Shown here: positions 10,371 to 64,000 of the stretch, in pieces | How the letters are laid out: the number at the start of each line of letters is the position of its first letter | Numbering within the stretch: the stretch's first letter is position 1 | Source of the DNA: Candidatus Micrarchaeota archaeon | GTDB taxonomy: Archaea > Micrarchaeota > Micrarchaeia > Norongarragalinales > SBBD01 | Direction: 5' to 3' | Assembly: GCA_018819225.1 (NCBI GenBank) | Contig: JAHJQN010000001.1 | Location: forward strand, 70,527-134,526 | DNA: 64,000 nt | Notes under the pieces: generated by a model | What the model was told of the DNA's origin: nothing | The model's database searches: none | What the model saw: only the letters and a program-made list of their open reading frames with translations | Made by a program: the position numbers and the translations under genes

Positions 10371-10415
10371 ACGAGCCAAACCAACGCAAAAGTTGAAACG
10401 AATTTATCAAATGGG

Positions 10416-22023: not shown

Positions 22024-22043
22024 GTCCAGAGGAGGTGAATGGA

Positions 22044-36032: not shown

Positions 36033-37421
36033 ATGCACGGGATGAAGGGATTGATTTTCCTCCTATTCGTTGTCAGCATATTTTCGATGCCAGCGGAAGC
36101 GAAATCATTGCAGGACGAGATTCGGGCATATTTGAATAAGGAGGAGGTGGCGTCGTATCAAGTCGTGGATTTCAATAATTCGCGGTATATTGTCGTGGAA
36201 GTGCAAGGCGACCCAAAGCTCGTATTCAATGTGGAAGCGGAACTCGTGACCGATGCCAAAGAAATCGAAGAAGTGCTGGACGCGTATTATACTCAAGTGG
36301 AGGAAGGGGCGTTCACGACGCGAGCGGCCGAAGACATGAAAGAAGAGTTCGAGGATACGTTTGCGGCGTTCCAACGATGCAATGCGACGTACTACGAATT
36401 CATTGAAACCAATTACTTGTGGGAAGGATTTCGGTGCGTGGAACCCAACGTGGGGCGGGCATGCGATGCCTCGACCGCACTACGGAAAGCGCTTTCCAGA
36501 CAATTCATTCAATTGAAAGGCTCCGTGGACGGATTACCGAATGCCATGGAAAAAGGGGCCACGGAAAATACATTGAATGCGTTGCGGACGATGGTGAGGC
36601 TGAGTAACGAAACGTACGAAAATGCGAGCGCGTGGGACCCGTACTACAAATACTTCTTTGGAAAGCGCATGGTGGATGACAACGAATGCGGATTGGATCC
36701 GTTGCGATTGAAGGGCATGGTGGACCAAATCGCGCCGTCCATTGAAACCCGTTACGTGAATCAAAGTACGAACGCGTCGGATCTCGCTCAAGAAACGGTG
36801 CGGCGGCGGGACTACTCCGCGATTCGAGGGTTGCAGGTGCGCGGAGAGGACGCCATGGATACCGCGCGTCGGAGTGCAGCGGAAGTGAAGTCGCGTTTCG
36901 GGGGATACGGATTTCCAACCGAGACGTTCGACCAAGAACTCATTCAAATGGAGCGCATTTTATTGGATTTAGAGGCCGCGCAGACTCCGGAGGAAGCGGA
37001 AGCCCATTTGAACAGCTTGTTTTCCGCGGTGGCGGAATTTAACGGATTGGAAGCGAAATACGAGTTATTGATTCCGGTGTACGCCGAATTGACGGAAAAC
37101 ATGAGAGAAACCGATCGTTTGATTACGGACACGAAACTGGGCTACGATTACGATGAGGGCGCGCTCGCTGCGTTGGAAGAGGACTTGAATTTATTGAAAG
37201 ATGAAATCGGTTTGCAGAATGAACTCGTGCGGGACGGGGGAAGTCTCGAGATTGAAACGCTGGAGGAATTGAATGCGAAAGCCGTGGTGTTAAAAATTCG
37301 GGCGGGCGGTGAAGAGGAGAGCGAGCCGTTTTGGTGGATGGACGCATTCCCCATTCTCGCCATTTTTATTGTCGCGTTGGGCGTGGCGCTCGTATATTTA
37401 TTCAAGATTCGTCGTCACTGA
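36033..37421 (+). CDS. Secreted, C-terminally anchored coiled-coil protein
   Basis: The likely start is ATG 36033 or 36042 (signal peptide MKGLIFLLFVVSIFSMPAEA). Acidic helical/coiled-coil body, C-terminal TM and KIRRH tail. Confidence 0.8.
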   Translation: MHGMKGLIFLLFVVSIFSMPAEAKSLQDEIRAYLNKEEVASYQVVDFNNSRYIVVEVQGDPKLVFNVEAELVTDAKEIEEVLDAYYTQVEEGAFTTRAAEDMKEEFEDTFAAFQRCNATYYEFIETNYLWEGFRCVEPNVGRACDASTALRKALSRQFIQLKGSVDGLPNAMEKGATENTLNALRTMVRLSNETYENASAWDPYYKYFFGKRMVDDNECGLDPLRLKGMVDQIAPSIETRYVNQSTNASDLAQETVRRRDYSAIRGLQVRGEDAMDTARRSAAEVKSRFGGYGFPTETFDQELIQMERILLDLEAAQTPEEAEAHLNSLFSAVAEFNGLEAKYELLIPVYAELTENMRETDRLITDTKLGYDYDEGALAALEEDLNLLKDEIGLQNELVRDGGSLEIETLEELNAKAVVLKIRAGGEEESEPFWWMDAFPILAIFIVALGVALVYLFKIRRH

Positions 37422-37462
37422 ACGCCGGGAATACGGAAAGCTATTTAAAGCACCCGAAAGTA

Positions 37463-37795
37463 ATGCAACGCGAGGGGTTCGTTGTGGATGTGAATCAATT
37501 CGTGGCATACGGATTCGTAGTCGGTTTAATCGCCTATTCCGTGCTCGCCTATCATGCGCACCGCAACATGCGGAACATGATCAAGGGACTCGATAAGGAA
37601 AAGCATCGCATGACCAAGCTCGAGAACCACGTCTCGGAACTCGATCGCGATGTCAAGCATTTGAAGCATTCCATGGCGCAGAAAGTCGAACGGCGGAGTC
37701 TGGAACGCATTTTTGCGGAAACCATCGAGTTCATTGAACGGAACAGCGCGAAAGTGGCCGTGGCTCAGACGCGCGTACCCGCCAAGAGATCGTGA
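37463..37795 (+). CDS. Small single-TM coiled-coil protein
   Basis: TM (FVAYGFVVGLIAYSVLAY) followed by heptad repeats. TTTAAA box at ~37444. The track's N-terminal extension overlaps the previous gene. Confidence 0.7.
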   Translation: MQREGFVVDVNQFVAYGFVVGLIAYSVLAYHAHRNMRNMIKGLDKEKHRMTKLENHVSELDRDVKHLKHSMAQKVERRSLERIFAETIEFIERNSAKVAVAQTRVPAKRS

Positions 37796-38082
37796 ATAAC
37801 ATGGCGTTCGAGGGTCTGACACTGGAGTCCATCATTCTCATCCTCCTGTTTCTGGGGGTCACGTACTGGTTAATTCACCTCATCCGCCAGCTCAACCGCA
37901 CCACCAAAAAAAGTTTTTCAGAGATCACGCACCACATGAACCGCTTGGAGCAACAATACGTGAAGATTCGTCCGGAGTTGGATGAGATGCGCGCGGTCAT
38001 GGACACGAAAGTCGATTACGATTACTTGGAGCGAAAAATGCATGAGCTCGTCAAGATCGTGATGCGCAGAAAACGCGGCTAA
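37792..38082 (+). CDS. Small single-TM coiled-coil protein, probable paralogue of the preceding gene
   Basis: GTGA start/stop overlap; TM plus coiled coil; TKVDYDYLERKMHELV vs QKVERRSLERIFAETI. Confidence 0.75.
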   Translation: MNNMAFEGLTLESIILILLFLGVTYWLIHLIRQLNRTTKKSFSEITHHMNRLEQQYVKIRPELDEMRAVMDTKVDYDYLERKMHELVKIVMRRKRG

Positions 38083-38087
38083 TTGAT

Positions 38088-39578
38088 TCACTTGAAAACT
38101 TTTGAGACGCGTAGCCACAGCTCGTCGACCGCATCATTCACTCCCCGGCTCGTGGTCACAAAGTCCTTCATGTCCTTGAGCAGGCGGTCCGAATAGTACG
38201 CCATGACCAAGAGCATGACGAGCGCGAGAATGAACGCGAGCAGGAACAAGTAGACGAAGAGCCAGCGCAAATCCAGATCAATGGAGCGGCTTGGGAACGT
38301 AATGCCCGCGTACACTTCCGTAAAGAAAGTGGCTTCGACATCGTAGTTTCCCTCCGAAGGCGGGTCTTCCCAATTCATTCGGAAATCCGTTAACGCTTTC
38401 GGGTAGACGACCATGGGATCCGACTGCAGGGTTCGAATCACGTTGCCCGCCGAATCTCGAATCGTAAATAGAACGTAAACCGGCAGCTCAATGTTTCCCA
38501 CATTCTCGAACGTGGCGTGTAAGTCAACGGATGGCGCGACCTGGTTCCGCGAAGCCACTAAGGCCCCCGTGGCTTTTCCAAGGGATTGGCCGAAATCCGC
38601 TTGAAGCCCCGTGATTTTTCCCGCGTAATGCGGTTGAGGCAACCGGTAGCCCTGCAAACGCATTTCAATGTCCTGGCGTTGCATGGCTTCATTGCCTTCC
38701 GTTCGAATCGTGCCAAATTTTACGTAAATGCGTGCGCCCGTCCGGTCCTTGATGAAGAATCCGGGGGAAGCGATGCCGTTTCCGATGCCTAACAAGTACT
38801 CGAGTCCCGCCTCATTCACGAGATTCGAGGTTTGCACGAGCGAATACGAACCGATTTCCGGTACGAGAAAGACGGCGTTCTCGCGCGCATTGAGAATCGT
38901 CAACTCGAGAATGTCACCCGTGGTAATCAATGCCTGACTCGGCTTTTCAATATTGAACGCATACGAGTTCGCGTAATAGTTGGTATCAAACTCGTCAATT
39001 CCGTTCAAGCGTTCCACGGGATAATTGCGGAGTTCGCTCATCACTTCAGGACCTAAACGGCCTATAGCGTATACGGTGGAAGGCTGGATGCGGGCCAATG
39101 ATTGAATGACGGGCTGAGGGAGCTCTCGAACGCGTTTCGCGTAAACGATGGGGGCTTGATCCACAATGGATAGATAGCGAGCTGAAAGAGCATCGAAAGC
39201 GAAATCGTCGCGCACCACGATCACGGAATCCGGTTGCAGTTTCTCCGCAAGCAATCCCGAGAGCTCGTATTGATCGACATATTCCACGTCGCGGATGTCG
39301 ATATCAAGTTGACGCAATTGGTACGTAAAACTGGGGACCGGATTGTCGATGCGGCTGTAGAGCTCGACTTGCGCAATATCCTGAGACGTTAATTCGTGCA
39401 AGGTTCCGCTGATCGAATGGATGTCTTGAACGTAACGCATGATATAGCCTTTCTGGTAAGCGTAAAGACTCGCCACGTAGGCATCCCGCCAATCGTTCGA
39501 GTTGACGAGTACCGCGGTTTGCGCGTTCGCGAGCGCTAGGAAAACGAACAGCCATCCAATGATTAACTTCGAACCCAT
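38088..39578 (-). CDS. Secreted/membrane-anchored protein with cell-wall-binding repeat 2 (CWB2)-like region, Ig-like domain and C-terminal TM
   Basis: Signal peptide MGSKLIIGWLFVFLALANAQ; DFAFDALSA...APIVY...STVYAIG...VERLNGIDEFDT resembles CWB2 (F.DALSA..PILL..RI.G.DRY.T); FENVGN beta-sandwich; C-terminal TM. Confidence 0.7.
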   Translation of the reverse strand: MGSKLIIGWLFVFLALANAQTAVLVNSNDWRDAYVASLYAYQKGYIMRYVQDIHSISGTLHELTSQDIAQVELYSRIDNPVPSFTYQLRQLDIDIRDVEYVDQYELSGLLAEKLQPDSVIVVRDDFAFDALSARYLSIVDQAPIVYAKRVRELPQPVIQSLARIQPSTVYAIGRLGPEVMSELRNYPVERLNGIDEFDTNYYANSYAFNIEKPSQALITTGDILELTILNARENAVFLVPEIGSYSLVQTSNLVNEAGLEYLLGIGNGIASPGFFIKDRTGARIYVKFGTIRTEGNEAMQRQDIEMRLQGYRLPQPHYAGKITGLQADFGQSLGKATGALVASRNQVAPSVDLHATFENVGNIELPVYVLFTIRDSAGNVIRTLQSDPMVVYPKALTDFRMNWEDPPSEGNYDVEATFFTEVYAGITFPSRSIDLDLRWLFVYLFLLAFILALVMLLVMAYYSDRLLKDMKDFVTTSRGVNDAVDELWLRVSKVFK

Positions 39579-39588
39579 TTTTCCCCTC

Positions 39589-42500
39589 TCATTCTTCAAC
39601 CCAGAAGTCGACGAAATCCTCAAGTGATTTTGGAAATGCGATCTCGTAATCGCTGGATCCGCCCTCGAAATTCGCGGCATCCGGATTTAGGTCTGCGCAG
39701 AATATAATGGTATCGCCGGCGGAAAACGCGGAAGAGTCATCCTCGTCGGAATACATGACGCCGATGTTCCAGTTTCCGTCGGTCGTAATCATGTAATTGA
39801 CGCCGGACAGCCCGCAAAGGTTCCCGCCGGAGTTATTGTAATTATTCTCCAGGAGATCTTCCACGTAAAAAAGACCCAGGCCCGAGTCTATTGCGGGCAT
39901 ATCCGCCGCATCATCTGCAGCCGTTAATTTGCTCCACGTCGGCGTGTCGCCTTGTTTCGTAATAAATACGGTTCCCGTGTTTTGCCGTTTAGCATAGGCC
40001 TCCGAGGATTCGGGGCCCGTTTCAGAATTGAGGCGTTGCGTACTAATCCCGTAAAATCCGACGTATTGACCGCTTCCCCCAATGGGGTTCGGAGGCAGTT
40101 TAACGAACACGTTCAACAACGGGAACGGATCTTCCCATCCCTCGTTTCCTTTCGTATCGTTGGCGTAGGTAGTATTGACGGTTAGGTTGCTTCCGATAAA
40201 TGAAACATTGACTTCAACGCCCCAACGATTGTCATTGGCGACTCCGGCATTGCAACCCGTATCGCTCATCGTCCAGTTTTGAGCGGTTCCGTTGGGGAAC
40301 GTTATCATGGCCCAGACGCGATCCAAACCGCCTTTGTCTCCTGCAGAAGCGTTCACGCAAATCGTGGTATTCACGGTCGCATTCGAAGTATTGACGTACG
40401 TGCTGTTCACAATCGGATAGGTTTTCACGGGGCCGAGGGGCGCAAACGGAGTGGAGTTAATGGATCCGTTGGCCCATATGCGCCACCAAACCGTCTCCCC
40501 TTCCGCTGAAACCGGTACTTCAATAGTTATGTTCGCCCACGAATTATTTTGTTCACTGAAAGAGGCATTGCTGGCATTCTCAAAACTCAGGGAAGCGTTC
40601 CATTCCAGCCAATACCATTCAAGACCGGAATCATCAAACCAATAACTGAAGAAAGTGACATTGTCAAGGACTTCGGGGGAGGAATTATCGACCCCCAAGT
40701 ATATAGGGGACTCGTTGTGGTAAGGCGCATCGTTCTTGACGGTGAAATTGAGCGCGGGCCAAGGGGATTGCTCTCCTTCATTGAGAACGGTATCATTTCC
40801 GAACGTAGTGTTTATGGTCAAGTTTCCAACAACAAGTCCTACATCGACCTCCACGCCATACCAATTATCGTCCGCTACACCTGCATCGCATCCCGTATCG
40901 CTCAAGGTTAAGTTGATTGCGGTTCCGTTCGGGTAGTTGACCATGATCCATGCCGCATCAATTCCGCTGGGGTCACCAACAGTTGCATTGATGCAAATGG
41001 TTTCATTAATGGTTACGTTTCCTTGCGTGAAATTGGCGGAGGTGGTGTTGATCGTTGGAGACTGGTTGGTGACGACAACGAAACCAAAATCAGTAGTATT
41101 CCAGATATTGTTCGAATCATTGGCGTGAAACTGGTATCCGAACGTTTTTCCTTCGCAGCCTACGGGGATAACCTTGGAGGTATTCGTCCAGTTCTGGCTC
41201 TGGAATTCCGCTTCCGTGTCATTTTGGAACCCGAGTTCACCACATTGGCTTCCGGTGGCATTCCAGGAAAAGGTGTAAAGACTCAAGTTGCTGAGTTCGT
41301 CCCACCATTGAGAATACATGAGTACCGGATCAGCGACCGTGATGGAACCCGAGGCGTTGTCTCCCAGATTCTGGTAAAGTGGCGGGAATACGTCGCTGTC
41401 GTCGTACAACACCCCAGTTGCATTGAATACGATCATGACAACGCTCTCGGGATTGTGACTCCTTTCCGTGTCGAGTACTTGATCTTCATCAATGTGCATG
41501 GATACAATAGTGCTCCACCAGTAAGGAATTACGTCGGCCAGCACGGCCCAACCGCCATTGGCTCCGGATCGAAGCGTTTGTTGAATGACTCCGGAAACGG
41601 GTTCCTGATTCAGGTTGTGCGTTACGTTGTAGTCACCGTTGTCGTGGCCGCGTACACCCGCTCCGGAAACCGCGCTGTAATTAATGCCGGCGGTATTATT
41701 GACGCCGATGGCCCAGGCGATCCAACCGACTTGTTCCGTTCCATGTAAAGTTGAACGCACTTCCGCGTTTTCCAAAGCAAGCTGGAAGCTGGCAGTACCA
41801 ACCGAATTTTCAATGGTTTCAATCCACGTGGGATCATTTTGCGTCTGTACCGAGGAGATTACCGCCGGATTCACTGAAAACGAATTGGCGTACGTGATGG
41901 TATCGTAACAAGTTCCAGGAGTGGAAGCGCCCTGCTGGCAGTTGGACGTGAAATTTCCTGCCTCGATGTAGGTGTTGGACATGTTCAGGTTGTGGCCGCC
42001 GCGCTCAACTGCCAACCAATATACGGTATCATTCCAATCCACGAGCGTTTCGTTGGGTTGTTGAATGCGGGCGTAGAAGCCCGTTCCGTTCACGTCGTAA
42101 ATACGCACGGAATAGGAATTTGGACTCGTGTGATTATGAATGGCCACGACAACAGGACGGTATAACGCGAAAGTGAAATCAACCCATACGGAAGCGTTGC
42201 TCACGGAATTAATCACACCTACTTCTCCTACGATATTGTCGCCTGGAGGAGGCTGTTGTTCCACGCTCACAACTACGTTGGGATAGGGATCCTCATAACC
42301 GAGATTTCCGAGGGTATCGTTTGAGAAGGTGGTATTGATCCGCAAAACGCCTTCAACGCTGCTGACGTTTACCGCGCCCCCATATCGGTTATCGTTTGAT
42401 CCGCCCGCATTACAACCCGTATCCGATAGAGAGATGTTGGCAGACGTTCCATTCGGGAAAGTAATCGCGGCCCAAACTTCGGAAACACCAACTCCTTGAT

Positions 42501-45500
42501 CTCCAGAAGATGCGTTGATGCAGATCAGCGTGTCCAGATATGCGGATCCCTTGTCGGAAGCCGTGGAATTGATTTCAGGGGATAAATTGGCGATCGTTAC
42601 ATAAAAGAATGACTCGGGTGTGAACACATTGAATGAGTCATTGGCCCAAGGCTTGCCGGCAATGATTTCTCCTTCCATGTTGGCCGGAACCATAACGGAA
42701 TAATTACTCCACGTATTGTTTGTTGGCGAGAACACAATGGCGGATTCGTTAGCCATACTGCCCGTGCCGTTCCATTCAAGAATGTGCGTGCTGAGAGCAA
42801 TATCATCGTACCAATAAGCGTAAAAGTCGATTTGATCCGTTGAATTGATTTCCGTATCATTGACTCCTTTGTAGACCGCATTCGGATTCGAGTAAGGGGC
42901 GTTGTTGAATACCGTGATGTTGATTGCGGGCCAAGGCGTTTGTTTGCCTTCATTACCGAGCGTATCGTTTGCGAAAGTGGTGTTGATGGTCGCCGTGCCT
43001 AAGGAATTGCCCGTATCGATTTCAAGGCCGTACACGTTATCTCCAGCACCGCCTGCTCCGCACCCGGTATCACTTAAACTCCAATTGAAAATGGACGCGT
43101 TGGGATAGGTAATGAGAATCCATACTTCATCCAAACCCATCCCCGCATCTCCTGCAGTAGCGGTCACGCAAGCGCGATGGGAGGGACGTAAATTCGTGGC
43201 GTTGGAAGCCGTGGAGTTAATGACTGGAGAAACGTTCTGGATGTAGAGATAGGTGAAGGGGGTCACGTTGAATTGATTCGCGGAATCGTTTGCCCAAATT
43301 CGTCCGGCTAAAACGTTTCCTTCCTGGATCGCTGGAATCTGCACGGTTTCATTTCCCCACGTGTCGTTTCCAAAAGAAAAGTCCGTCCACGAAACATTTT
43401 CCATGCTTCCGGACGCATTCCATTCCAGCGAATAGGTGCTGAGCAGCGCGTCGTCGTACCAATAACTGAAGAATTTTACGTTTTGCAGAGTAACGGGGGC
43501 CGTATCATCCGCACCCAAGTATGCCGGATCGTCCGGGTAGAATGGGGGTTGGTTTCCGATCGTAACGTTAAGAGCCGGCCAAGGCGTTTCTTCTCCTTCA
43601 TTGCCAAGCGAATCGTTCGCAAAAGTGGCATTGATTGTCAGATCTCCGAGAATGGTCCCGACCGCGATTTCACGGCCATAACGGTTATCACCCACTCCCC
43701 CTGCATTGCAGCCCGTGTCGCTTAAACTCCAGTTGAATATGGAACTGTTGGGATAGGTGACCGTGACCCAAACTTTATCAACCCCAACACCCAAATCGCC
43801 GGCACTCGCATTGACGCAGATGCGGCTGTTGACAATGACTCCCGAAGAATTAACTTCAGAAGAATTCAGAACAGGAGGAGCTTGTTGAACCACGAGATAA
43901 GAAAACGGGGTACTGTTGAATTGGTCCGTCGTGTCATTGGTCCAAATGTTTCCTGAAATATTTTTTCCTTCCGAACTTCCTGGAAGTTCAATACTGTAAT
44001 TTCCCCATGTATCGTTGGAGGGAGAGAAGACCGTCCAATCTTGATACTCGAAGCTTCCGGTCTCGTTCCATCTCAAAGTATACGTGCTCAACGAAACGTC
44101 GTCATACCAGTAACTGTAAATCAGCAATCGATCATGCGGATCCGGAGTACTTACGTTAGCCCCCCAGTAAACGGTATTGATTTCGTAGTAAGGAGGCGTA
44201 TCTGGAGGGACATCAATTTGCACTTGAAGCAATGGTCGTGGACTCTCGAAATCTTCATTTCCGACGGTGTCGTTTGCATACGTGGTATTGATGGTCAAGT
44301 TTCCTAAGGCGGTACCTACGCTGATTTGTCTACCCCAGCGATTATCATCGGCCCCCCCTGCATTACAGCCGCCATCCAACAGCGTATAATTGATGAGCGA
44401 ACCATTCGGGTAATTCACGAGTGCCCAGACGCGATCCAAACCGGCTCCCGCATCTCCGGCGGATGCATTAATGCAGATGAGCGAGTTTTGGTAAACGAAA
44501 TTGCTGTCCACTTCCGTTGCATTGACGAGAGGCGTTTGATTCAAGATGTTCACGAAGAAGAATTCCGTTACGTTGAATTGATTGGTGCTGTCATTCGCCC
44601 ACATTCTTCCGCCCAGAACCTCTCCTTCAATAGCGGCTGGAACGGAAATGGTGAGGTTGCCCCACGTATCATTAGAGGGAGAGAATACGACAGCGGATTC
44701 ATTGGCCATGCTTGCGGATCCATTCCATTCCAAGAAGTAAGTGCTCAACGCACTTTCATCATACCAGTAGGTGTAGAACAAGATTTGGTCCCTTGCATCT
44801 GCATCCGTAGTGTTCAAACCGCGGTAACCGTTTGTTGCATTATAATAGGGAGGCAGGTTCGGAGCAGTGATTGAAATATTCCATGCCGGCCAAGGCGTTT
44901 CCTCGCCCTCATTTCCAATCGTGTCATTGGCGAACGATGCGTTAATCGTCAGCGTTCCGGGATCCGTTCCGACGTTGATCGAACGCCCCCAGTAAATGTC
45001 TCCGGCGCCTCCGGCATTGCAACCGAGATCGCTTAAACTCCAGTTGAAAATCGAGGTGTTCGGATACGTCAGGGAAACCCAAACCTCGTCAATACCCGCG
45101 CCGGCATCGCCTGCGGTAACATTCACGCAAATTTCATCCGTGTATATCGCGACAGAATCGTTAATGCCCGTGGTATTTACCAACGGGCTTTGGTTCTGGA
45201 CGGAAACGAGGTTAAAAGCCGTAACATTGAACTGATTATTGGAATCGTTGACCCATATTCTTCCCCAGACTTCCTTTCCTTCTTGCGAAGGATCAATAAC
45301 ATCGGTTTGATTGGCCCACGAATCGTTGGTGAAGAAGAAATCGGTTTGCGAGCCATTGGTCAACGCGCCTGAGAAATTCGTTTCAAGGAAGAACGAACTG
45401 AGCGCCAAATCATCCCACCAGTAGCTGAAGAAAAGAATTTGGTCGTTCACTTCAGCCGTGGAGGTGTTGGCGCCGAGGTAAATGGGGTCAATGGAATAAT

Positions 45501-46761
45501 AGGGCAAACGATCCGATACCGTAAGGATCCCGATATCCGTGGCATTGAAAATATTGTTGGAATCGTTGGCATAAAAGCGATAACCAACCGCCTTATTCTC
45601 GCAAGCCGTCGGAACGGCTTTCGTGGTGTTCGTATAGTTTTCGCTTTGGAAAAGTTCGGGAGTGAAGTTCACCCAACCACTCGTTATTCCGCAATCGCTT
45701 CCGGACGCGTTCCAAGAGAATACGAATGTGCTTAAATCGCTTTGCACGTCCAACCACTGAGAGTAGAAAAGCGTAATATCGTTTACAAACGCCGGAGTCG
45801 TCGCATTATCTCCGAAGTTTCTCCATTCCGGCGGCGAGGCATCCGAATCGTCGTAAATGAGTCCGGTTTGGTTGAATACGATAATGGAAACGGGATTGGG
45901 GGTATGGCTCTGTTCCGCGTCGCCGACTTGGTCTTCCTGCAAGACGACGTCAATAGTAGTGGAAGTCATCGGAGTGCGATCGTCGATAACGGCCCAAGAG
46001 CCATCCGCTCCCTGGTGTTCCGTCTGCATCACTAATGCGGACGCAGGGAATACCCCCAAATCATGAATGTACTGATAATTGCCATTGTCTCTCGACCGGA
46101 CTTGGTCTGGAGTGATAATGGAGCGATACTGTAATCCGCTGTCGGAGCTGTTGATGCGCTCCCAGGCAATCCAGCCGACTTGTTCATTGCCGTGAAGGGT
46201 GGCGCGCACTTCCGCATTTTCGAGAGCGAGCTGAAAATTCGTTGCGGTAATCGTGTTAAACGTCGTATCGGTAAACGTGGGATCTTCTTGGGTCATTACC
46301 CCCGAGAATACATTGGGAGCGGAAGAAAAGGGGGAAGAATACGTAATCGTGTCAAAGCAGTCTCCGGAAGTGCTCTTTCCTTGTTGACAATTAGATGTAA
46401 CATTGTCGGCTTCAATGATGACTCCGGATTCAACAAGGGTGTGGCGTCCGACTTCGACGGCCACCCAAAAAACGGTGTCATTCCAGTTCACGTACGAATC
46501 ATTGTCCGCTTGCAAGCGCACGAAGAATCCAGTAGAGTTCACATCGAATACGCGGACCGTGTAGGGATTAGGACTGGTTTTATATTGTTCAGCCACCACG
46601 ACCGGATCAGTTAACGGAACCGTAAAGTCAATCCAAGCCGAGGTATTCCCAACCGTAGAATACGAGCCGACTTCTCCAACCACATTATCTGCGTTTACAG
46701 GTAAAGCCATTGCTAGCAATAGGAAAAATCCAAGCACAATGGTTTTTCTGTTTGAATTCAT
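39589..46761 (-). CDS. Giant (2,390 aa) secreted repeat protein / putative adhesin
   Basis: Signal peptide; two copies of a ~280-aa DN(V/I)VGEVG...YDDSD domain; seven copies of a GC(N/G/D)AG-containing module; many N-x-S/T sequons; no C-terminal TM; C-terminal domain homologous to the 46772-47398 protein. Confidence 0.9.
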   Translation of the reverse strand: MNSNRKTIVLGFFLLLAMALPVNADNVVGEVGSYSTVGNTSAWIDFTVPLTDPVVVAEQYKTSPNPYTVRVFDVNSTGFFVRLQADNDSYVNWNDTVFWVAVEVGRHTLVESGVIIEADNVTSNCQQGKSTSGDCFDTITYSSPFSSAPNVFSGVMTQEDPTFTDTTFNTITATNFQLALENAEVRATLHGNEQVGWIAWERINSSDSGLQYRSIITPDQVRSRDNGNYQYIHDLGVFPASALVMQTEHQGADGSWAVIDDRTPMTSTTIDVVLQEDQVGDAEQSHTPNPVSIIVFNQTGLIYDDSDASPPEWRNFGDNATTPAFVNDITLFYSQWLDVQSDLSTFVFSWNASGSDCGITSGWVNFTPELFQSENYTNTTKAVPTACENKAVGYRFYANDSNNIFNATDIGILTVSDRLPYYSIDPIYLGANTSTAEVNDQILFFSYWWDDLALSSFFLETNFSGALTNGSQTDFFFTNDSWANQTDVIDPSQEGKEVWGRIWVNDSNNQFNVTAFNLVSVQNQSPLVNTTGINDSVAIYTDEICVNVTAGDAGAGIDEVWVSLTYPNTSIFNWSLSDLGCNAGGAGDIYWGRSINVGTDPGTLTINASFANDTIGNEGEETPWPAWNISITAPNLPPYYNATNGYRGLNTTDADARDQILFYTYWYDESALSTYFLEWNGSASMANESAVVFSPSNDTWGNLTISVPAAIEGEVLGGRMWANDSTNQFNVTEFFFVNILNQTPLVNATEVDSNFVYQNSLICINASAGDAGAGLDRVWALVNYPNGSLINYTLLDGGCNAGGADDNRWGRQISVGTALGNLTINTTYANDTVGNEDFESPRPLLQVQIDVPPDTPPYYEINTVYWGANVSTPDPHDRLLIYSYWYDDVSLSTYTLRWNETGSFEYQDWTVFSPSNDTWGNYSIELPGSSEGKNISGNIWTNDTTDQFNSTPFSYLVVQQAPPVLNSSEVNSSGVIVNSRICVNASAGDLGVGVDKVWVTVTYPNSSIFNWSLSDTGCNAGGVGDNRYGREIAVGTILGDLTINATFANDSLGNEGEETPWPALNVTIGNQPPFYPDDPAYLGADDTAPVTLQNVKFFSYWYDDALLSTYSLEWNASGSMENVSWTDFSFGNDTWGNETVQIPAIQEGNVLAGRIWANDSANQFNVTPFTYLYIQNVSPVINSTASNATNLRPSHRACVTATAGDAGMGLDEVWILITYPNASIFNWSLSDTGCGAGGAGDNVYGLEIDTGNSLGTATINTTFANDTLGNEGKQTPWPAINITVFNNAPYSNPNAVYKGVNDTEINSTDQIDFYAYWYDDIALSTHILEWNGTGSMANESAIVFSPTNNTWSNYSVMVPANMEGEIIAGKPWANDSFNVFTPESFFYVTIANLSPEINSTASDKGSAYLDTLICINASSGDQGVGVSEVWAAITFPNGTSANISLSDTGCNAGGSNDNRYGGAVNVSSVEGVLRINTTFSNDTLGNLGYEDPYPNVVVSVEQQPPPGDNIVGEVGVINSVSNASVWVDFTFALYRPVVVAIHNHTSPNSYSVRIYDVNGTGFYARIQQPNETLVDWNDTVYWLAVERGGHNLNMSNTYIEAGNFTSNCQQGASTPGTCYDTITYANSFSVNPAVISSVQTQNDPTWIETIENSVGTASFQLALENAEVRSTLHGTEQVGWIAWAIGVNNTAGINYSAVSGAGVRGHDNGDYNVTHNLNQEPVSGVIQQTLRSGANGGWAVLADVIPYWWSTIVSMHIDEDQVLDTERSHNPESVVMIVFNATGVLYDDSDVFPPLYQNLGDNASGSITVADPVLMYSQWWDELSNLSLYTFSWNATGSQCGELGFQNDTEAEFQSQNWTNTSKVIPVGCEGKTFGYQFHANDSNNIWNTTDFGFVVVTNQSPTINTTSANFTQGNVTINETICINATVGDPSGIDAAWIMVNYPNGTAINLTLSDTGCDAGVADDNWYGVEVDVGLVVGNLTINTTFGNDTVLNEGEQSPWPALNFTVKNDAPYHNESPIYLGVDNSSPEVLDNVTFFSYWFDDSGLEWYWLEWNASLSFENASNASFSEQNNSWANITIEVPVSAEGETVWWRIWANGSINSTPFAPLGPVKTYPIVNSTYVNTSNATVNTTICVNASAGDKGGLDRVWAMITFPNGTAQNWTMSDTGCNAGVANDNRWGVEVNVSFIGSNLTVNTTYANDTKGNEGWEDPFPLLNVFVKLPPNPIGGSGQYVGFYGISTQRLNSETGPESSEAYAKRQNTGTVFITKQGDTPTWSKLTAADDAADMPAIDSGLGLFYVEDLLENNYNNSGGNLCGLSGVNYMITTDGNWNIGVMYSDEDDSSAFSAGDTIIFCADLNPDAANFEGGSSDYEIAFPKSLEDFVDFWVEE

Positions 46762-46771
46762 GGGAGAAGGA

Positions 46772-47398
46772 TCACTCCAAGTCGTACCAGATGTCGTAAC
46801 TCAAGAAGGAAGGCGTTTTCGCGACAATGATTTGATAATTAATGGTACCGAAGCCGTTCGTGGAAGTAAAGCTGCTGATGTTCGTGCAGAAAAAGTAGTT
46901 CTCGGTTCCCGGAGTAGAAGAATCAAATAATATGCCCGTGCTGCGGCTGTCCGTCGTGTTAAGCACTTTAATATCGAGATTCGAGCCGCATTGTCCGTCC
47001 GAAGCATTGGTATCGAAATGGTTTGCAGTAGAATAGTAACCCGTCAGCGAGAAGTTGCCATCCGTCGTGCTGTTCGTGGACGCGTTGACGAACGGAGCCG
47101 TTGGCGTCGCCCCTCCCTTAAGGAAATAGAGAACTCCGGACGTCACGCCCTTCTGATATAAAACGTTTCCAAGAGCAGTACTATTCCGCACTTGGGAAGA
47201 AACATTTCCGTAAAAACCGACGTATTGCTGCATGCGGCCCGTGATGTTCGTGTTATTCGCCGTGCCGTTTTCCGCGGGAACCGCCCAATTCGTGTAATCG
47301 GATTGTTCGGCAGCTGCCGCTACGTAGATGGCGCTCGCTATCACGACTGCGAGCAGCGCTCCGGCTACCGCTAATATATGCCAACTTCGCACGGCCAT
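46772..47398 (-). CDS. Secreted 208-aa beta-rich protein, putative filament/surface subunit
   Basis: Hydrophobic N-terminus, QYVGFYGNVS motif, two Cys, NYQIIV...YDIWYDLE C-terminus; N-x-T/S sequons. Confidence 0.85.
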   Translation of the reverse strand: MAVRSWHILAVAGALLAVVIASAIYVAAAAEQSDYTNWAVPAENGTANNTNITGRMQQYVGFYGNVSSQVRNSTALGNVLYQKGVTSGVLYFLKGGATPTAPFVNASTNSTTDGNFSLTGYYSTANHFDTNASDGQCGSNLDIKVLNTTDSRSTGILFDSSTPGTENYFFCTNISSFTSTNGFGTINYQIIVAKTPSFLSYDIWYDLE

Positions 47399-47416
47399 GA
47401 CCCACTCGGACCCAGG

Positions 47417-50400
47417 TTACTTTCGTTTTTTCTTCCCGGTCTTCTTGGAAGCGCGGGAAGAAAGCTTGCCCATCTTCTTGACTATAGCAGATGGGGATAC
47501 GCGTTTCTTGTTGGATGCGTTCGGTTTCACTTTGGCGTTCTTGCTTTTTACGTTCTTGGTTTTCATGGAATCCTTCAAGTTCTTGAGAATGCGATTCGCG
47601 CGTTTCTTGTGATCAAATTCGTCCTTGGAACGGTATTGGTTTCGAAGCGCCTTGATTTCTTTCAAACGCGCTTCGATGCGTTCCTCGGATTGGTCATCGT
47701 CCGCACTCGTTGCGGATATCGCATAGGATTCCGCGGTTTGCGATGCTTCCTCATCCTCTTCCTTCATGTCCTCCAGTACTTTCGCTTGTTCGCCAACGGA
47801 TTTCGAGGGAAGCGGAGCATGGGCTTTCTGGTTGTCTCGCCACGTCGTGAACGAGCGCTTGGGATCCGTTGCTTTCCGATCATCCGTTTTCAGGGGGGTG
47901 GAAGACCATGGAGACGGAGCGTTGGTCGGTTCTGGAGCGGCTGTTTTTTCCTCTGAAGGATTCACTTTCGAACCCATGCGCAACGGTTTCGAGGAGAGAA
48001 CGTTCTTGGAGGGCTTGAGTCTGTTGACGAGAGAGCCCACTGCGTTTTTCAACGGGTTGCCTGAAAGCTTTCGCTTCCCTTCCGCGATTTTCTTGACTTC
48101 CGTACGCGCTTTCTCTTCCAAACGTTTTTGCATGGCCTCCAAATCCTCTTCCCCGGCCGCTTTGGGAGCAGGAGTCGCGGTTTCGGTCGCTGCAGCCATC
48201 GTTGGAGACGGAGCGGATGCGCCCGGCTCGGGCGATGGAGACGAATCGTTCGCGATCTCGCCGTCGTGCGTCACCATGTCCGGGGAGGTAATCGCTAAGG
48301 ATGCTTCCTTCTTTTTCGGAACCTTCTTTTTGGGAGTGGAAGGGGCTTCCGCAGGCGGAGCCGCAGGGATTTCGGAAGTTTGGGAAATCGGGGCAACGGG
48401 CGCTGGCTCGCTGACGGCTTTCTCCAGACTTTGCGAGAGCTTCGCGGCCTGCAAATCTTCGGTGTGATGCTGACCGGCGATTTTCGAGAACTCTTGATGG
48501 ATCTGGTTCTCCAGCAGATTGAGGCGCTTGAGGTTCGCTTCCTTTGTCTTCTGGTAATCCGCTTCCGAAATCGCTTTCTCCAGGAATTCCTCCTCGTTGC
48601 TGGTGAGGATGAGTTCAAGGCCTTCTTTTTGCTTCTTCATTTCCTTGAGCTCGTGAGGCAGGTCGCGGCCTTGCTCGGCAAGTAGCTGTTTGGCGTGCAA
48701 TTCTTCGAGTCGCAGCTTCGATTCATCGAGTTGTTTCGTAATGTCGGATAGATCGTCTTTGGACGCGAGTTGTTCAAGCTTCGTGTTGCTGCTTTCCACG
48801 AGTTGCACCAGGTCTTTAACGCTTTCCGCCATCAGATCCTGCTTGCCTTTATACGTCATGAATTCCTCGAGGCGGCGGTTCATGTCCACGTACACGCGAC
48901 CGATTTCCTCGCTCAAGCGATCCGCTTTGTTGACCGTGCTATCGATTTTCACGACTTTCTCGGAGATTTGCTTGTTGACTTCCGAAATATTTTTGAGGCT
49001 GCCGATGCCTTCAAGCAATTCTTTCGTGCGGTTCACGTTTTTGGCGAGGTCTTGGCCCATGGTTTCTTGTTTCTCGATGCGCATCGCGTATTCCCCGATC
49101 GTGCGGTCGCGCTTTTCCAGTTCTTTCATGAGTTTCTGCGGCTCGAGTTCCTCCACCATGTCCATGAAACGCGATACTTTCGCTTCCTGTTCCTTGAGGC
49201 CGGCGTCGCGCTCGAACAACATTTGGCGCAATTCGCCCACGCTCTCCATGATGTGGCCCAAGCGTTCTTCAAGCGAGTTGCGCATCTCACCGAGCCCGTC
49301 CACTTTCACTTTCAGTTTTTCAAGCTCCATGATGACTTTTCCGCTTGCGGCTCCGCCACCCGTATCCTCTCCGCCGAGTTGCTGGGACAGCGATTTCTCT
49401 TCCGCGGGAGGGGCGACTTGCGGGGCCTGCACTTCAGGCGTGGAGCGGAACGGATCCTCCGGCGAACCCGAACCATACATCTTGGGCTCGGATGAGGAAG
49501 CCTCCGAGGGTTTGGATTCGTGATGCATTAATCCCGTTAACTTGTTCATGAAATTCGATACTTGATCGCCGCCTTTTTTCTGCGCGGGCGCCGGGGCAGT
49601 GACCGCTGAATCCGCGCGGTACACGTTCCCGGATATGGGCGCTTCCACTTCATCCGGCAAATGCTCTTCGGACTCCTCGTCTTCGAACATGCGCTTCTGG
49701 GCTTTGTGACGGTCTTTGATGTCGAGCTCGCCCATGATCGTGCGCGCCTCGTCCACAATGGCGTCCCGATCAAACGATTCGTTCAAATCATTGTAAAGGG
49801 GAGTGCGGGGTTTGGGCAGTTGCGGAGCGGGCGGCAGTTCGGGAGGCGCTTCAAAGCGCGGCTGGCGAGCGACTTTCTCGCGCGTGAGTTGCGCGAGACC
49901 CTCCACATCGAAATCATCCCCTAAGGGTTGGGACAAGCGGCGATGGGATTGGGAAGGACGCGTCATGCGGCCGTCGGTCTCCGTTTCTTCTCCGCTGTAG
50001 TCATGTTGTTGAATCAGGTGGCTCACGCGCTGCAGGCGCTTGGAGTTTTCCAGCTTGAGTTCATGATAACTCTCTTCCGAAATGCTGCCTTCGTTGTAAC
50101 TTTCCTCGAGGAATGAAAGCATGGCTTCCAGATCCTGCTGGTTCTTCGTGAGTTTGTCGAGCTGGGTCTCCATGTCTATGGATGAATCGGGCGCGTCTTG
50201 CTCGTAACTTTCCTCATAGGAAGAGGAGGGGACCGGGGGCTTCTGACGGATTTGATCCAGTTTCTGCAGGGACGCCTGCGTGACCTCGCGATAGCGATCA
50301 TCGGATATGGTGCCGCGTTTGTAACTGTGGCCTAAGAACGAGAGCAGGGCGAGAATGCCGTGTTCCATGCTCTTGGAATCGTAATCCTCGGTGCGCGCGT

Positions 50401-50509: not shown

Positions 50510-50525
50510 TACCTCAGAATGCTTC

Positions 50526-50729
50526 TTACCCCTTCTTGAGCCGTTCCAGTTCGCGCCCGACGTCCCGACGCTTGAACACGTCTGAAATGTAGCGGTCCAT
50601 CAAGGCTTCCAGCACATCTCCAATGCGTTTCGATCGCCCGGTTTCGGGATCGCTGTCGAAACTGCATGCTCTCCGGAAGTCGTTCTGGAGTCGCTGCTCG
50701 ATTTTGACGTTGAACTGCGTCTTGGGCAC
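50526..50729 (-). CDS. Small ribbon-helix-helix-like DNA-binding protein
   Basis: KTQFNVKIEQRLQNDFRRAC...IGDVLEALMDRYI: alternating beta-strand followed by two helices. TTTTTAAA box about 25 bp upstream of the GTG. Confidence 0.6.
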   Translation of the reverse strand: MPKTQFNVKIEQRLQNDFRRACSFDSDPETGRSKRIGDVLEALMDRYISDVFKRRDVGRELERLKKG

Positions 50730-50749
50730 GGTAACCGCTAGGGTTCCGG

Positions 50750-50832
50750 GGTTTAAAAAGATAACTATCTATCGAGCTAACAAATAAAGAATCATAAGAA
50801 TCTATTTTGATATTTAGATATCTTTTTTCTAT
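50750..50832 (-). promoter_or_regulatory. AT-rich promoter/operator region
   Basis: Markedly AT-rich stretch with a TATA-like box, tandem AAGAATC repeats and several AGATA/TATCT units. Confidence 0.5.
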
Positions 50833-50834
50833 GT

Positions 50835-51377
50835 TCATGATGATTCACCTTGAGATAACCGTTTGAAATGCCCGATCGCCTCAGGCAAACGTCCGAAATT
50901 GATGAAACGTTGCGTAGGCGAAACATAGGGATGAAAGGCGTGCACTTCGATATTCCCTTTGCCGATGCGCTGAAGAAATCCATGCAACCCCGTCAACAAA
51001 CGGAAAACCTGTAATGGCGATGCATGTAAGGCCGTCGTATCGGCTGAAATCTGAATATGCCAATCCTTTCCTTTCGCAACATACCCTCTAATCACGTGCC
51101 GGTACTCAGCGGGTTTTGCATGACCTAAATGTTTGCGTACTTGATAGTAGTGGAAGATGCCGGATCCAATGGCCACCACCGGTTTTGTCAAATGAATGGA
51201 AAAACAAGATACCTTCTCGGGGTGTTTAATGACTTGACGGGACAGTACGATCTCCACACCATTCATACGTTCAATTCGATTTCCAGTGGCAAGAACGCGC
51301 GTGCGACGCCATCGACTCAATGAAGAACGAGGCTTCTCGGCGTTTTCTTTTCGTTTGCCAATAAGTGGAAAAGCCAT
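50835..51377 (-). CDS. Hypothetical basic protein (180 aa)
   Basis: ATG at 51377 (MAFPLIGKRK...) lies 5 bp after the stop of the giant ATPase gene. The longer track ORF overlaps that gene. Confidence 0.55.
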   Translation of the reverse strand: MAFPLIGKRKENAEKPRSSLSRWRRTRVLATGNRIERMNGVEIVLSRQVIKHPEKVSCFSIHLTKPVVAIGSGIFHYYQVRKHLGHAKPAEYRHVIRGYVAKGKDWHIQISADTTALHASPLQVFRLLTGLHGFLQRIGKGNIEVHAFHPYVSPTQRFINFGRLPEAIGHFKRLSQGESS

Positions 51378-51382
51378 GCGTC

Positions 51383-54300
51383 TCATCGCCTCGTCATGCC
51401 CTTGATGCGGGCGTTTACGGACTCCAAGTAATTCTGAGCCATGCGCGTCAAACCTTGTTTGAGCTTGTCGCTCGCGATGTTCAACTCCAGCTCGACGTCG
51501 TACGTATCCACGCCGTGCGACTTCAATTCCGCGAGTTGCTTGCGCGCGTCCTCGATCTGCAAACGAATCGTCGTAAACTGTTTGATTTCCTCCTCGGTCA
51601 AACTGAACGTGCTGTGCAAAAGCGGCCGGAAGCTCACGAACCACGGCTTTCCGTCATTGTATTCCGCGTTCTGGTATAGACCGGTTCCGACCGTCAATTT
51701 GGTGACGCGGTCCGCGTACTCGGCACCGTACTTCGTTTTCACTCGTCCGATGTCTCCTTCGTACCGCGTTCGCAATTGGATTTCAGAGGCAATGTTCGCG
51801 CGCACCGCGCCCTTGAAGTCGAGCAATACCTGCGAGATGAGGAAGATGCCGATTCCCCACTTTCGGAACTCCCGGCAGCCGCGCTCAATGCTCGTGTACG
51901 CGCCCTTACCCCCGTACTTGGGCAGCAAACGGTGAACCTCGTCGTAGATAATCATGGCTTTCAGCTCACGGCTTTCCTTGGGGTTGCTGTGGAAAATGCT
52001 GTCGATGCTGCGTCGCACTAAACTGTCGAGTTGCTCGGGGCGCAGCTTGTTCATGACGAAAACAGTCATTTCTCCGGGCTTGAAGTGCTCCGGAATATTG
52101 ATGTCCATGTTCGGGTCCGTGACGTCGATGATGTTGACCTTGAATCCGCGCGCGTCCTCGGGGCGCAAGCCGAAGTTCGGGTAGAGCGATAACATGCCCT
52201 TGTCCTTGTTGGGTCGGATGAAGCCCGTCCATTGAGCCGTGGGATCGAATACGACGATGGGCAGCTTGCGCATGAGCATTTCCTCGGCAATAACCTGAGC
52301 GGACACGGACTTGCCGCTCCCGGTTCCTCCTGCGGCAATGGAATGCGTCGTTAACCGCTCCATTTCCACGTACGATTTGACGTCGGTTTCCGCAATCTTT
52401 CCGGTCACAATGGAACGCGGGCCCGGCTGAGGTAGTTTCTTGAAGTCCAACGGCATGATGTAGCGCGTGACTTTTCTTTGGCGGCGGCGATAGGCCTTGT
52501 ACGCGCGGCGTCCGACAATGGCGAGGAGTAGCAAGGCAATGAGCGCGTAGGTCAGCGGCGAGGAAATGACGGTTTCCACGACTAATGCGGTGAATGGAAC
52601 GGTGACTAAGTCGAATGAATCCGCTGCAGAAGATTGCTTGCGTCCGTCGAAGTAAGTGGCGCGCGCTTGAATCACGTATTTTCCTGGTGGCGCGTTCACC
52701 GGAATCTCAAGCGCGACCAGTCGCGTAATCACGTCGCGGACACTCAACGTTTCCGTTTCGCTTACGATGGAGGTTTCGTCGTCGAGGGAAAGCACTTCGT
52801 AGACCGCGACCACGTTATCGACGAGCGACGTTTCTCCCCGGTTAATGAATGAAACTTCGGCCTTCAATTCGTTGCCGGGGGTTACGGTCTTCGTAAGCGC
52901 GCGGGCCTTCACTTCGAGCGTGGGTTCGCGGACCGATTCAATCTTTAGCGTGACGGGAGTGCGGTGCGAATAATCGCCCATGCGAATGAGTATGTCGCCC
53001 GTGTAAATGTCGGGTTCGGCATCTTCGGGAGCGAATACGGTGACGTGGACGACTTCAACGGTCCCTGCCCCAACGGAAAGCGAAACGTTGGAAAGGGAAA
53101 GATACGGTACAATTCCTCCCTCGACGGTAATCTGCGCTTGCATGTCCTCGGCAAGATTGTTGATGAGGTCCATGGAATGGACTTCGCTTTCGCCGGGTTG
53201 GAGGATAACGTAAAGTAACGTGGAGCGCACTTCGAGCGGGGCCTGCAAGGTCGGAGGCGTCGTGCCTGACCCGGGTCCGGAAACGTTGGTTCCTGCTCCG
53301 GGCGGGGCCGTTCCGGTTTCGCCTTCGGAAACGACGCCGCCACCCGGTCCGCCTCCACCGGGTACGACGGTAGCAACGGCCGTTGGAGTGACCGTGACAT
53401 TCAGTACTCCGCAATCCAAGGCGCAGTTCGATGTCGACTCGCCGTACGTCGTTTCGCATACCCCGTTACCGCAAACGTATTCGGCGAGCGCGTATCCTTC
53501 GCTCAAGTTATTGGTAAGCATCCACACCGACGTCCCGCTGGAATTCAAGTTTCCTCCAACGCGCGACCAGTTCGATCCGCAGCCTGAGAATTGCGTGTAG
53601 TTGGAGCACGTGTAAAGTCCGAGGTTGGGTTCGAAGAATCCAGAATAACCCGAGTAGTTGAGTGAAAGCCCAATCCGGTTCGTGTAGTTGAGTTTGGTTT
53701 CAATGGTCGTCCCGAAAATCGCTCCGGCGCCGATGCGTTCCGAGGGAATATGCCCGAATTTCACGGGATCGTGAACGTTTTGGTTGATCAATGAACCATT
53801 GAATCCAACCATCGTGTTGACTCCCGTCGCGATGATGCCATACGTGTTAACGAAAACCGTGCGGTTGTAATGGCCAGTGGAATTCGCGCTGAAGTTGTAG
53901 ATCACCGATCCCGATAAGTTGTAGAAATCAATTTCAGTCTTATTGTGCAGCTTCCAATCCAGTGCAATAACGGGTTTGGAATTGCTTTCTTCATCGTACG
54001 CTATTCCCGAGAAGTAGGCTGCGGCGCGGACTTCAAATGAACCGGTCGTGCTGTTGCAGTTTCCGGATACGTCGCAAGTGGTTGCGGATACGGAGTAAAT
54101 ACCTTCTCGGCTCGTATCCGAGTAGTTGGAATCGTAGTAGTAGGAGTCTCCAGACGAGTAAGCGAGCGCGTACGTGAGGCTAACAACCGTAGCGTTCGGG
54201 TACGTCAAGTTTCCGGTCACATTCGCGATGCCTCCGGTATCCGTCGCATTCACTTGAATCGGAGCTGTGAAGTTTGCAATAACGAGTGTTTCTAAAATGA

Positions 54301-64000: not shown

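Follow-up and report, generated by a model that had tools for sequence, protein, structure and literature searches.

Archaea of the DPANN group depend on contact with a host cell, and the proteins which make this contact are largely unknown. Since 2019, the main candidates have been giant proteins which carry an ATPase at their tail. These giants were named SPEARE proteins and one of them was shown to be made; sequences related to their conserved intracellular part were noted in Micrarchaeota, Aenigmarchaeota, Woesearchaeota and Altiarchaeales, and by definition they contain one or more laminin-G domains as well as serine-protease and toxin-like regions (Hamm et al., 2019; PMC6642349). The nanohaloarchaeal giants are described as consisting of a signal peptide, approximately 75 Ig-like domains, a transmembrane (TM) helix, an ATPase termed "VirB4/TraG-like" and a terminal coiled coil, and have been proposed to act in host binding and secretion, while the protease and endonuclease domains of SPEARE proteins are disputed (Reva et al., 2023; PMC10266531). 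Here, we analyze a locus of this kind in a 64,000-nucleotide stretch of DNA from Candidatus Micrarchaeota archaeon (GenBank assembly GCA_018819225.1), referred to as the window, which corresponds to positions 70527–134526 of contig C5 of the source genome (G000; 1.37 Mb, 8 contigs, 90% complete). Within the window, a symbiont of the Micrarchaeota (DPANN) probably encodes a cell-surface locus of the SPEARE type, which is composed of two separable modules and likely serves host attachment. Module A is built around the giant protein and a coiled-coil partner, module B around a membrane-anchored protein with three CWB2 domains.

The product of the giant gene exhibits an ectodomain of Ig-like/beta-sandwich repeats, a single TM helix and, inside the cell, a HerA-like ATPase (Table 1). 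At least 3,800 ectodomain residues lie within the window, comprising approximately six super-repeats of 320 amino acids (aa) in addition to other Ig-like or NPCBM_assoc-type domains, and the Ig-type Pfam matches (Big_1, Big_3_5, Invasin_D3, NPCBM_assoc) are weak. N-glycosylation sequons number 259 in the ectodomain as opposed to 84 expected from composition and stop at the TM helix, with none in the 375 residues that follow. The topology is supported because the sequons are enriched in the ectodomain and absent from the cytoplasmic part. Judged from its sequence, this fusion of ectodomain, TM helix and ATPase is a member of the published SPEARE/giant-surface-protein family, with which it shares the plan of a signal peptide, an Ig-like ectodomain, a C-terminal TM helix and a P-loop ATPase with a helical tail. 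Like the published giants, it is long and mostly extracytoplasmic (the portion in the window being joined by a probable 4,722 codons on contig C8), it has a single TM helix near a cytoplasmic C-terminal region, and its intracellular domain is homologous to that of the nanohaloarchaeal giants. The latter point was established via open reading frames (ORFs) of Nanohaloarchaeota genomes, 27 of 42 of which contain a 40–56% identical domain at the end of ORFs of up to 12,145 codons. Overall, the ATPase domain is 40–66% identical to the tails of giant ORFs of Micrarchaeota, Aenigmatarchaeota, Nanohaloarchaeota, Woesearchaeota and Altiarchaeota. At least 578 loci with this domain are present in species genomes across the DPANN phyla, and 363 representative clusters with E < 1e-30 were retrieved among 1.84 billion representatives; their sequences are 450–7,665 aa long and carry the ATPase at the C-terminal end. 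Many of these homologues carry ResIII and LamG Pfam matches as reported by Hamm et al. (2019). The giant described here departs from their definition in that no LamG, protease or toxin Pfam match was detected in either its window part or its C8 part.

The ATPase domain itself matches Pfam DUF87 (8.8e-10) and HerA_C (1.7e-6) as well as HerA structures (E ~1e-9). These matches bear out the giant ATPase fusion which an earlier note on this stretch, written from the letters alone, had already recognized. The same note had stated that the list of parts matched no recognizable system; this does not hold, as the giant has the published SPEARE architecture, for which host attachment has already been proposed (Hamm et al., 2019; Reva et al., 2023). 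Two observations on ATPase tails elsewhere may be added. A 3.5-kb contig of an Asgard metagenome-assembled genome, titled Heimdallarchaeota (L068; JAEOTG010000200.1), contains an ATPase tail with 58% identity and a coiled-coil gene, and is probably a mis-binned DPANN contig. In addition, three further copies of the ATPase tail are found within 15 kb of one relative (G016:C1:780195-795224); as each copy matches in two pieces, these copies may be interrupted by insertions or split.

The giant gene extends beyond the end of contig C5. At the end of another contig of the same genome, C8, an ORF of 4,722 codons with an N-terminal hydrophobic segment and the same repeats runs off the sequence. The two fragments very probably belong to one giant gene of at least ~8,900 codons, because they share their repeats, because the orthologue in genome G006 is one unbroken frame of 12,373 codons (G006:C12, locus L006) and because a divergently oriented paralogue of the 208-aa gene described below lies just upstream of the 5′ end of the giant gene, both on C8 and in G006. 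Two other unbroken frames ending in this ATPase domain span 12,145 codons (G099:C8) and 10,914 codons (G088:C54) and come from Nanohaloarchaeota genomes; all three long frames derive from metagenome-assembled genomes and are unverified. Each of the three is longer than the protein of 9,409 aa given as the largest in cultivated archaea by Reva et al. (2023).

Profile evidence favors a classification of the ATPase as "HerA-like" over "VirB4/TraG-like". When a profile of 19 homologues, across which Walker A, Walker B and several arginines are invariant, was compared with the structures in the PDB, HerA ranked first (4d2i, 1.3e-9), while FtsK (E 0.24) and DotL appeared only at E > 0.2. In sequence and profile comparisons, the ATPase core is matched best by archaeal HerA (Sulfolobus HerA 4d2i; DUF87/PF01935) and by the HerA proteins known from bacterial defence systems (8wiv, 9c1m), whose Walker A and B and downstream motifs align with it. 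In contrast to HerA, however, the ATPase described here is tethered to the membrane behind a giant ectodomain, the region N-terminal of its Walker A is short, and it has no NurA or effector partner; Pfam and NCBIfam scans of the cluster revealed no NurA-like gene. With 33 bits against a cut-off of 800, it also stays below the curated score of the NCBIfam family HerA_Thermprot. For the ATPase, PADLOC reported no more than a generic similarity to HerA or mad8, and none of the other genes gave a match; a reading as anti-phage defence was therefore dropped.

The ranking of HerA bears on the proposal that the locus encodes a translocon related to a type IV secretion system (T4SS), a conjugation apparatus or the Ced system, in which the tethered ATPase would pump DNA or effectors while the ectodomain makes contact. 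Such a role has been published for the nanohaloarchaeal homologues (Reva et al., 2023), and it agrees with the placement of the ATPase in the HerA/FtsK/VirB4 superfamily, with weak matches to NCBIfam CedD (26.7 bits, 2.1e-6), TraC (25.7 bits), TraB and TraD and to Pfam T4SS-DNA_transf (0.0025), and with a MinD/ParA ATPase gene found nearby on C8 and downstream of the coiled-coil gene in 22 of 47 loci (those with at least 8 kb of downstream sequence). The T4SS and Ced matches, however, lie far below the curated cut-offs (600 for CedD, 567 for TraC, and likewise for TraB and TraD), and membership in these systems was dropped on this ground. Furthermore, Pfam detects neither a CagE/VirB4 N-domain (CagE_TrbE_VirB) nor a second VirB4-like ATPase in the cluster, the latter in contrast to the nanohaloarchaeal giants, which are reported to be followed by such an ATPase (Reva et al., 2023). 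The ten genes of the row comprise no polytopic channel protein of the VirB6 or CedA type, and each ATPase protomer has only one TM helix. A translocon is thus an improbable reading of this locus. As the earlier note had observed, no pilin, PilB/TadC, archaellin or VirB family is found among these genes by Pfam and NCBIfam.

The most constant companion of the giant is the coiled-coil protein. The next gene after the ATPase encodes a homologue in 77 of the 80 DPANN loci retrieved, with a median gap of 36 nt; the remaining three have less than 350 bp of downstream sequence, meaning that all 77 informative loci (more than 350 bp) are positive. A more diverged homologue also follows the second paralogue group in this order. 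The 1,030-aa protein of the window is cytoplasmic, with disordered linkers and a Lys-rich tail, and contains three copies of a short helical SHOCT-like motif, L..L...Y..G.IS...Y...K, resembling that of SHOCT proteins (PF09851, PF20612). Instead of ending a bacterial membrane protein, as in SHOCT proteins, these motifs lie to either side of a long coiled coil. Pfam SHOCT or SHOCT_2 matches are obtained in 7–10 of 32 coiled-coil homologues (best 2.8e-4), and by eye the motif can be recognized in every one. The Atlas relatives of the coiled-coil core are exclusively hypothetical DPANN clusters; generic bacterial coiled coils, considered as look-alikes, fell below the 0.9 lead level. A Rosetta-stone fusion of the core to the ATPase was also considered and rejected. 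In fact, the hidden Markov model (HMM) of the coiled-coil family matches none of 239 giant homologues even with filters off, and the C-terminal extensions of some homologues must therefore be something else. The coiled-coil partner appears not to have been described before. In the passages that term searches of DPANN papers returned, including those of PMC6642349 and PMC10266531, there is no mention of the SHOCT/coiled-coil partner, of the SHOCT-tailed surface protein introduced below or of the CWB2 module. A full-text search on SHOCT, CWB2 and DPANN likewise returned no paper which deals with these partners, none was found which combines DPANN with DUF87, and the sole mention of SHOCT found in a Micrarchaeota paper concerns an unrelated copper island.

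Many DPANN loci continue beyond the coiled-coil gene with a surface protein of ~1,950 aa (NPCBM_assoc, MG2), the MinD/ParA ATPase and, in some cases, a small Ras-like GTPase; the surface protein is present in 31 of the same 47 loci. In the genome studied here, a second surface protein of 2,094 aa and a MinD/ParA ATPase are encoded on C8, upstream of the N-terminal fragment of the giant. Behind a C-terminal TM helix, the cytoplasmic tail of the 2,094-aa protein ends in one SHOCT-like motif, a feature shared by nearly all complete tails of its homologues. In this genome, a strict SHOCT-like pattern is confined to this protein and the coiled-coil protein. The same stretch of C8 (C8:40940-51253) also holds three small membrane proteins, a TM protein of 98 aa and the paralogue of the 208-aa gene. 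In Aenigmatarchaeota loci (L030:13621-14280, L052:13271-14519), a Ras/Arf-like GTPase and conserved proteins of ~100–160 aa, one of the latter weakly Peptidase_M50B-like, separate the coiled-coil gene from that of the second surface protein, which hints at a polarity or positioning module.

Taken as a working model, module A would consist of a heavily N-glycosylated giant Ig-like chain which crosses the membrane once and ends in the cytoplasmic HerA-like ATPase. By analogy to HerA rings, the ATPase may form a hexamer under the membrane, thereby bundling several ectodomain chains into a long fiber. The coiled-coil protein might scaffold this ring and, as suggested by the shared motif, tie it SHOCT to SHOCT to the ~2,100-aa surface protein encoded on C8, and MinD could position the assembly. 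In a far-reaching version, the giant ATPase, the SHOCT/coiled-coil protein, the SHOCT-tailed surface protein and MinD would constitute a four-gene organelle conserved across the DPANN phyla, in which a MinD-positioned hexameric ring tied by SHOCT motifs to surface fibers forms a docking and transfer platform for host–symbiont bridges on the symbiont side, with a CWB2 anchor and dock adding exchangeable adhesins in some Micrarchaeota. We regard this version as a long shot. If it were true, an example candidate would be the unidentified barrel under the Micrarchaeota envelope which is reported from cryo-electron tomography (bioRxiv 10.1101/2024.05.20.594898).

Module B centers on the CWB2 protein. 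This protein has a signal peptide, and its AlphaFold2 model (pLDDT 81) exhibits three alpha/beta domains of the CWB2 type, one Ig-like sandwich and, at the C-terminus, a TM helix followed by a cytoplasmic helix. The match to Pfam CW_binding_2 (2e-5, 25.5 bits versus a cut-off of 24.9) and the fold both sustain the CWB2-like TM protein of the earlier note. Foldseek places the model next to Clostridioides difficile Cwp6 (5j72, 4.6e-9) and the high-molecular-weight subunit SLPH of SlpA (7acy_B, TM-score 0.57), with TM-scores of 0.51–0.57 normalized by target and an rmsd of ~3.7–4 Å (3.7 Å over ~316 columns); matches to GH3 proteins were discarded as meaningless, their rmsd being above 25 Å. The triple CWB2 pseudo-trimer is thus a fold common to this protein, SlpA SLPH/SLPL (7acy) and Cwp6 (5j72), although sequence identity amounts to only 16–19%. 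In contrast to C. difficile, the archaeon has neither peptidoglycan nor the PSII polymer, and anchoring would be provided by the protein's own C-terminal TM helix. The CWB2 protein contains no N-glycosylation sequon in 530 residues (~3 expected), while its neighbors are enriched three-fold, and its orthologue in the closest genus (G001) likewise lacks sequons.

The genes next to it encode proteins which share one beta-domain. In an alignment, the 208-aa protein corresponds to the C-terminal ~190 residues of the 2,390-aa adhesin, with two invariant cysteines and conserved YVGFYG, FC and DYEI.FPK motifs. The C-domain of the adhesin (39592-40149) matches the beta-domain HMM at 2.2e-76, and the adhesin orthologues end in the same domain. 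Six copies of the domain are present in this genome, the 208-aa protein being one of five small paralogues (the others on C8 and C3). The 208-aa protein starts with MAVRSW, followed by a long hydrophobic stretch ending in AAAA/EQ; it has no class III prepilin motif, and no pilus or archaellum Pfam families, such as a PilB/FlaI ATPase or a PilC/FlaJ platform, are found in the cluster. Besides its duplicated lectin-like head, the adhesin contains seven GCxAG modules and 143 sequons (42 expected), and the hydropathy profile reveals no membrane anchor. When the CWB2 ectodomain was modeled together with the 208-aa beta-domain, the complex scored 0.81 as opposed to 0.00 for the best control. This mark is also reached by 58 of 80 solved complexes and by 2 of 110 mismatched pairs, counts which are rough because custom alignments were used. 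Three runs share at least 84% of the contacts, the pLDDT of the partner is at least 69, and on the partner side the interface involves the first and the last strand of the beta-domain, both of them conserved. The docking of beta-domain proteins on the CWB2 protein is thus supported by modeling. The membrane-anchored triple-CWB2 protein would accordingly hold the 208-aa protein, its four paralogues and the lectin-headed adhesin, a layout resembling the way in which the S-layer of C. difficile combines an anchor with outer subunits. In SlpA, too, a smaller and variable outer subunit is bound in a non-covalent complex, as is predicted here; the predicted interface, however, lies after the third CWB2 domain and not at the N-terminal interaction domain.

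C-terminal TM anchors are common in archaeal S-layer proteins. This, the fold match to SLPH and Cwp6, the resemblance of the predicted two-subunit complex to the H/L pairing and the five small beta-domain paralogues raise the possibility that module B is an S-layer or a general envelope layer, placed beside the giant by chance or through shared regulation and having no specific role in host contact. Against this, only 12 of the order's 68 genomes clearly contain the CWB2 gene, with three additional weak matches, and the gene tracks the orthologous giant gene; moreover, one of the docked proteins is a lectin-headed adhesin of 2,390 aa and not a lattice subunit. We consider this explanation rather unlikely, if less so than the translocon. 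The beta-domain family, in turn, occurs in the same 12 genomes plus G005.

The seven co-oriented genes with 10–18-bp gaps within the row could also be read as one apparatus of seven to ten components, and this is what the earlier note had envisaged: a motor-stalk, a coiled-coil scaffold, a shaft subunit, a tip adhesin and an anchor. The full set is adjacent in G001, G016, G011 and G030, so that modules A and B are neighbors in five genomes of three families including this one, and the giant gene has members of the 208-aa family to either side. Moreover, all nine genomes of the order with an orthologous giant (at least 61% identity) possess the CWB2 gene. Conversely, genus g4 has its adhesin, CWB2 and p96 genes on contigs other than those of the giant and coiled-coil pair, most DPANN loci with this pair lack module B, the orphan and the small ORF of the row are confined to this genome and the nearest genus (G001), and a likely internal promoter splits the row. 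An integrated appendage is therefore about as doubtful as the translocon, and the roles of "motor-stalk" and "shaft subunit plus tip", as well as a polymerization of the 208-aa protein, are conjecture. We read the row as two conserved modules which are often neighbors, and not as a single seven-part apparatus, because of the separation in g4, the lack of module B in most DPANN loci and the restriction of the orphan and small ORF to the nearest genus. Module A is found across DPANN, module B only in some genomes of this order. Together, both modules most likely serve attachment to host cells; a joint function is not required, since module B does not lie beside module A in g4. The expectation of a surface or attachment locus agrees with the neighborhood and co-occurrence data, in which parts of the locus are syntenic and co-occurring (77 of 77 loci, 9 of 9 genomes). 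The earlier note had named scattered homologues or a match to a known S-layer as outcomes that would speak against it; synteny is kept for parts of the locus, while the anchor module does resemble the S-layer anchor of C. difficile.

Several points weigh against the reading of a two-module SPEARE-type locus for host attachment. The C8–C5 join is deduced from synteny and shared repeats. The SHOCT-like motifs of the window's own coiled-coil protein lie under the Pfam thresholds, with no match at E ≤ 0.01, and the hexamer, the bundling into fibers and the SHOCT-to-SHOCT tether are derived from family behavior and motif sharing. Modeled alone, the 208-aa protein is an all-beta fold of low confidence (pLDDT 57), and the complex may have scored well partly through its likeness to solved SlpA H/L complexes. 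Genome G005 contains two small beta-domain genes, and no CWB2 gene was found there with this query. Finally, related genomes are not independent and the co-occurrence counts overstate the support, which makes them suggestive only, and g4 keeps the two modules on different contigs.

All ten genes of the row were found in place, seven on the minus and three on the plus strand, and translations and coordinates confirm the short gaps, the single gap of ~105 bp and the three TM/coiled-coil genes which meet the row head-on, as first noted. The minus-strand junctions are, in order, -4, 105, 16, 18, 10 and 10 bp. Judged by the archaeal TATA consensus, the 105-bp gap is likely an internal promoter. Three gene models were refined against locus L018 of G001, which belongs to the closest genus: that of the orphan, that of the small ORF and, with starts at internal Met codons, that of the CWB2 gene along with two genes on the plus strand. 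The first 86 codons of the 269-aa ORF originally listed for the orphan are out of frame and not part of a gene, leaving 183 aa, and a 109-aa ORF (50509-50838) was dismissed as it lies in a different frame from the 67-aa ORF and is not conserved. The orphan has a 54% identical homologue at the same position in G001 only and no Pfam, NCBIfam or PADLOC match. The 67-aa ORF had been considered RHH-like; neither it nor its G001 homologue matches any family in Pfam (even at E ≤ 10), NCBIfam or PADLOC, the RHH family included, and this assignment was dropped. On the plus strand, p96, the small TM protein of module B, is kept beside CWB2 homologues in G001, G011, G016, G030 and genus g4, and in all lineages examined its gene and the CWB2 gene converge. 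The ~110-aa protein has homologues in G001, G016, G011, G008 and G030, and the 461-aa protein a 48% identical one in G001 only.

Table 1. Features of the locus; positions refer to the window unless contig C8 is indicated.
Feature	Position	Strand	Remarks	Basis
Giant gene, 3′ part	51383..>64000	-	4,205 codons; gene cut by end of contig C5	Translation and ORF
Single TM helix of giant	52511-52555	-	Followed by Arg/Lys-rich stretch (positive inside)	Hydropathy scan and sequence
HerA-like (DUF87) P-loop ATPase domain	51386-52456	-	Ends in helical tail	
Walker A	52307-52330	-	ATPase domain of giant	
Walker B	51932-51955	-	ATPase domain of giant	
Basic orphan, 183 aa	50835-51386	-	ATG overlaps TGA of giant gene as ATGA	
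Gap, 105 bp, AT-rich	50730-50834	-	TATA-like TTTTTAAA ~25 nt upstream of next start	Direct sequence reading
Small ORF, 67 aa, GTG start	50526-50729	-	Frame conserved with G001 ORF at same position	
Coiled-coil gene, 1,030 aa	47417-50509	-		
SHOCT-like motifs of coiled-coil protein	50282-50347, 50054-50122, 48521-48586	-		
Conserved coiled-coil core, ~290 aa	48470-49342	-	Motif ES.GELRS..F; SHOCT-like motifs flanking	
208-aa gene	46772-47398	-	Secreted, glycosylated; signal or anchor helix and one beta-domain	
2,390-aa adhesin gene	39589-46761	-	Secreted repeat protein	Translation
H-type-lectin-like head of adhesin, duplicated	~45862-46689, ~41392-42240	-	Weak match	Pfam H_lectin 0.0075
CWB2 gene, 496 aa	38088-39578	-	Start at Met35 of 530-aa ORF	
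Predicted interface segment on CWB2 protein	38661-38732	-	After third CWB2 domain; predicted strand 283-306, counted from Met35	Complex model
96-aa protein (p96), N-terminal TM and coiled coil	37792-38082	+	Convergent on CWB2 gene	
~110-aa protein, TM and coiled coil	37463-37795	+	Start at Met45 of 154-aa ORF	
461-aa protein: signal peptide, helical/coiled-coil ectodomain, C-terminal TM	36033-37421	+	Start at Met78 of 539-aa ORF	
Second surface protein, 2,094 aa	C8:40940-47224		Outside window; upstream of N-terminal fragment of giant	
MinD/ParA ATPase	C8:47253-48053		Outside window; upstream of N-terminal fragment of giant	

The remainder of the window contains archaeal housekeeping genes such as those for geranylgeranyl reductases and ThyX. 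Two further large surface proteins are encoded there, one of 2,929 aa with CarboxypepD_reg and Big_1 matches (1590-10379) and one of 1,215 aa with a heparinase II C-terminal domain (28881-32528). A class II ribonucleotide reductase (22035-26978) is interrupted by an intein with a LAGLIDADG endonuclease, and a tRNA (764-882) probably contains an intron, because the match spans 119 bases compared to the 71 positions of the model.

The core of this locus belongs to a published family, while the SHOCT/coiled-coil partner, the SHOCT-tailed surface protein together with MinD, and the CWB2 anchor-dock pair appear to be new, judged by the passages that term searches of DPANN papers returned. Should the partners not bind each other, the locus would be another member of the known family of giant adhesins. 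At the same time, the partner genes provide concrete candidate pairs for host attachment which can be tested in existing DPANN co-cultures.

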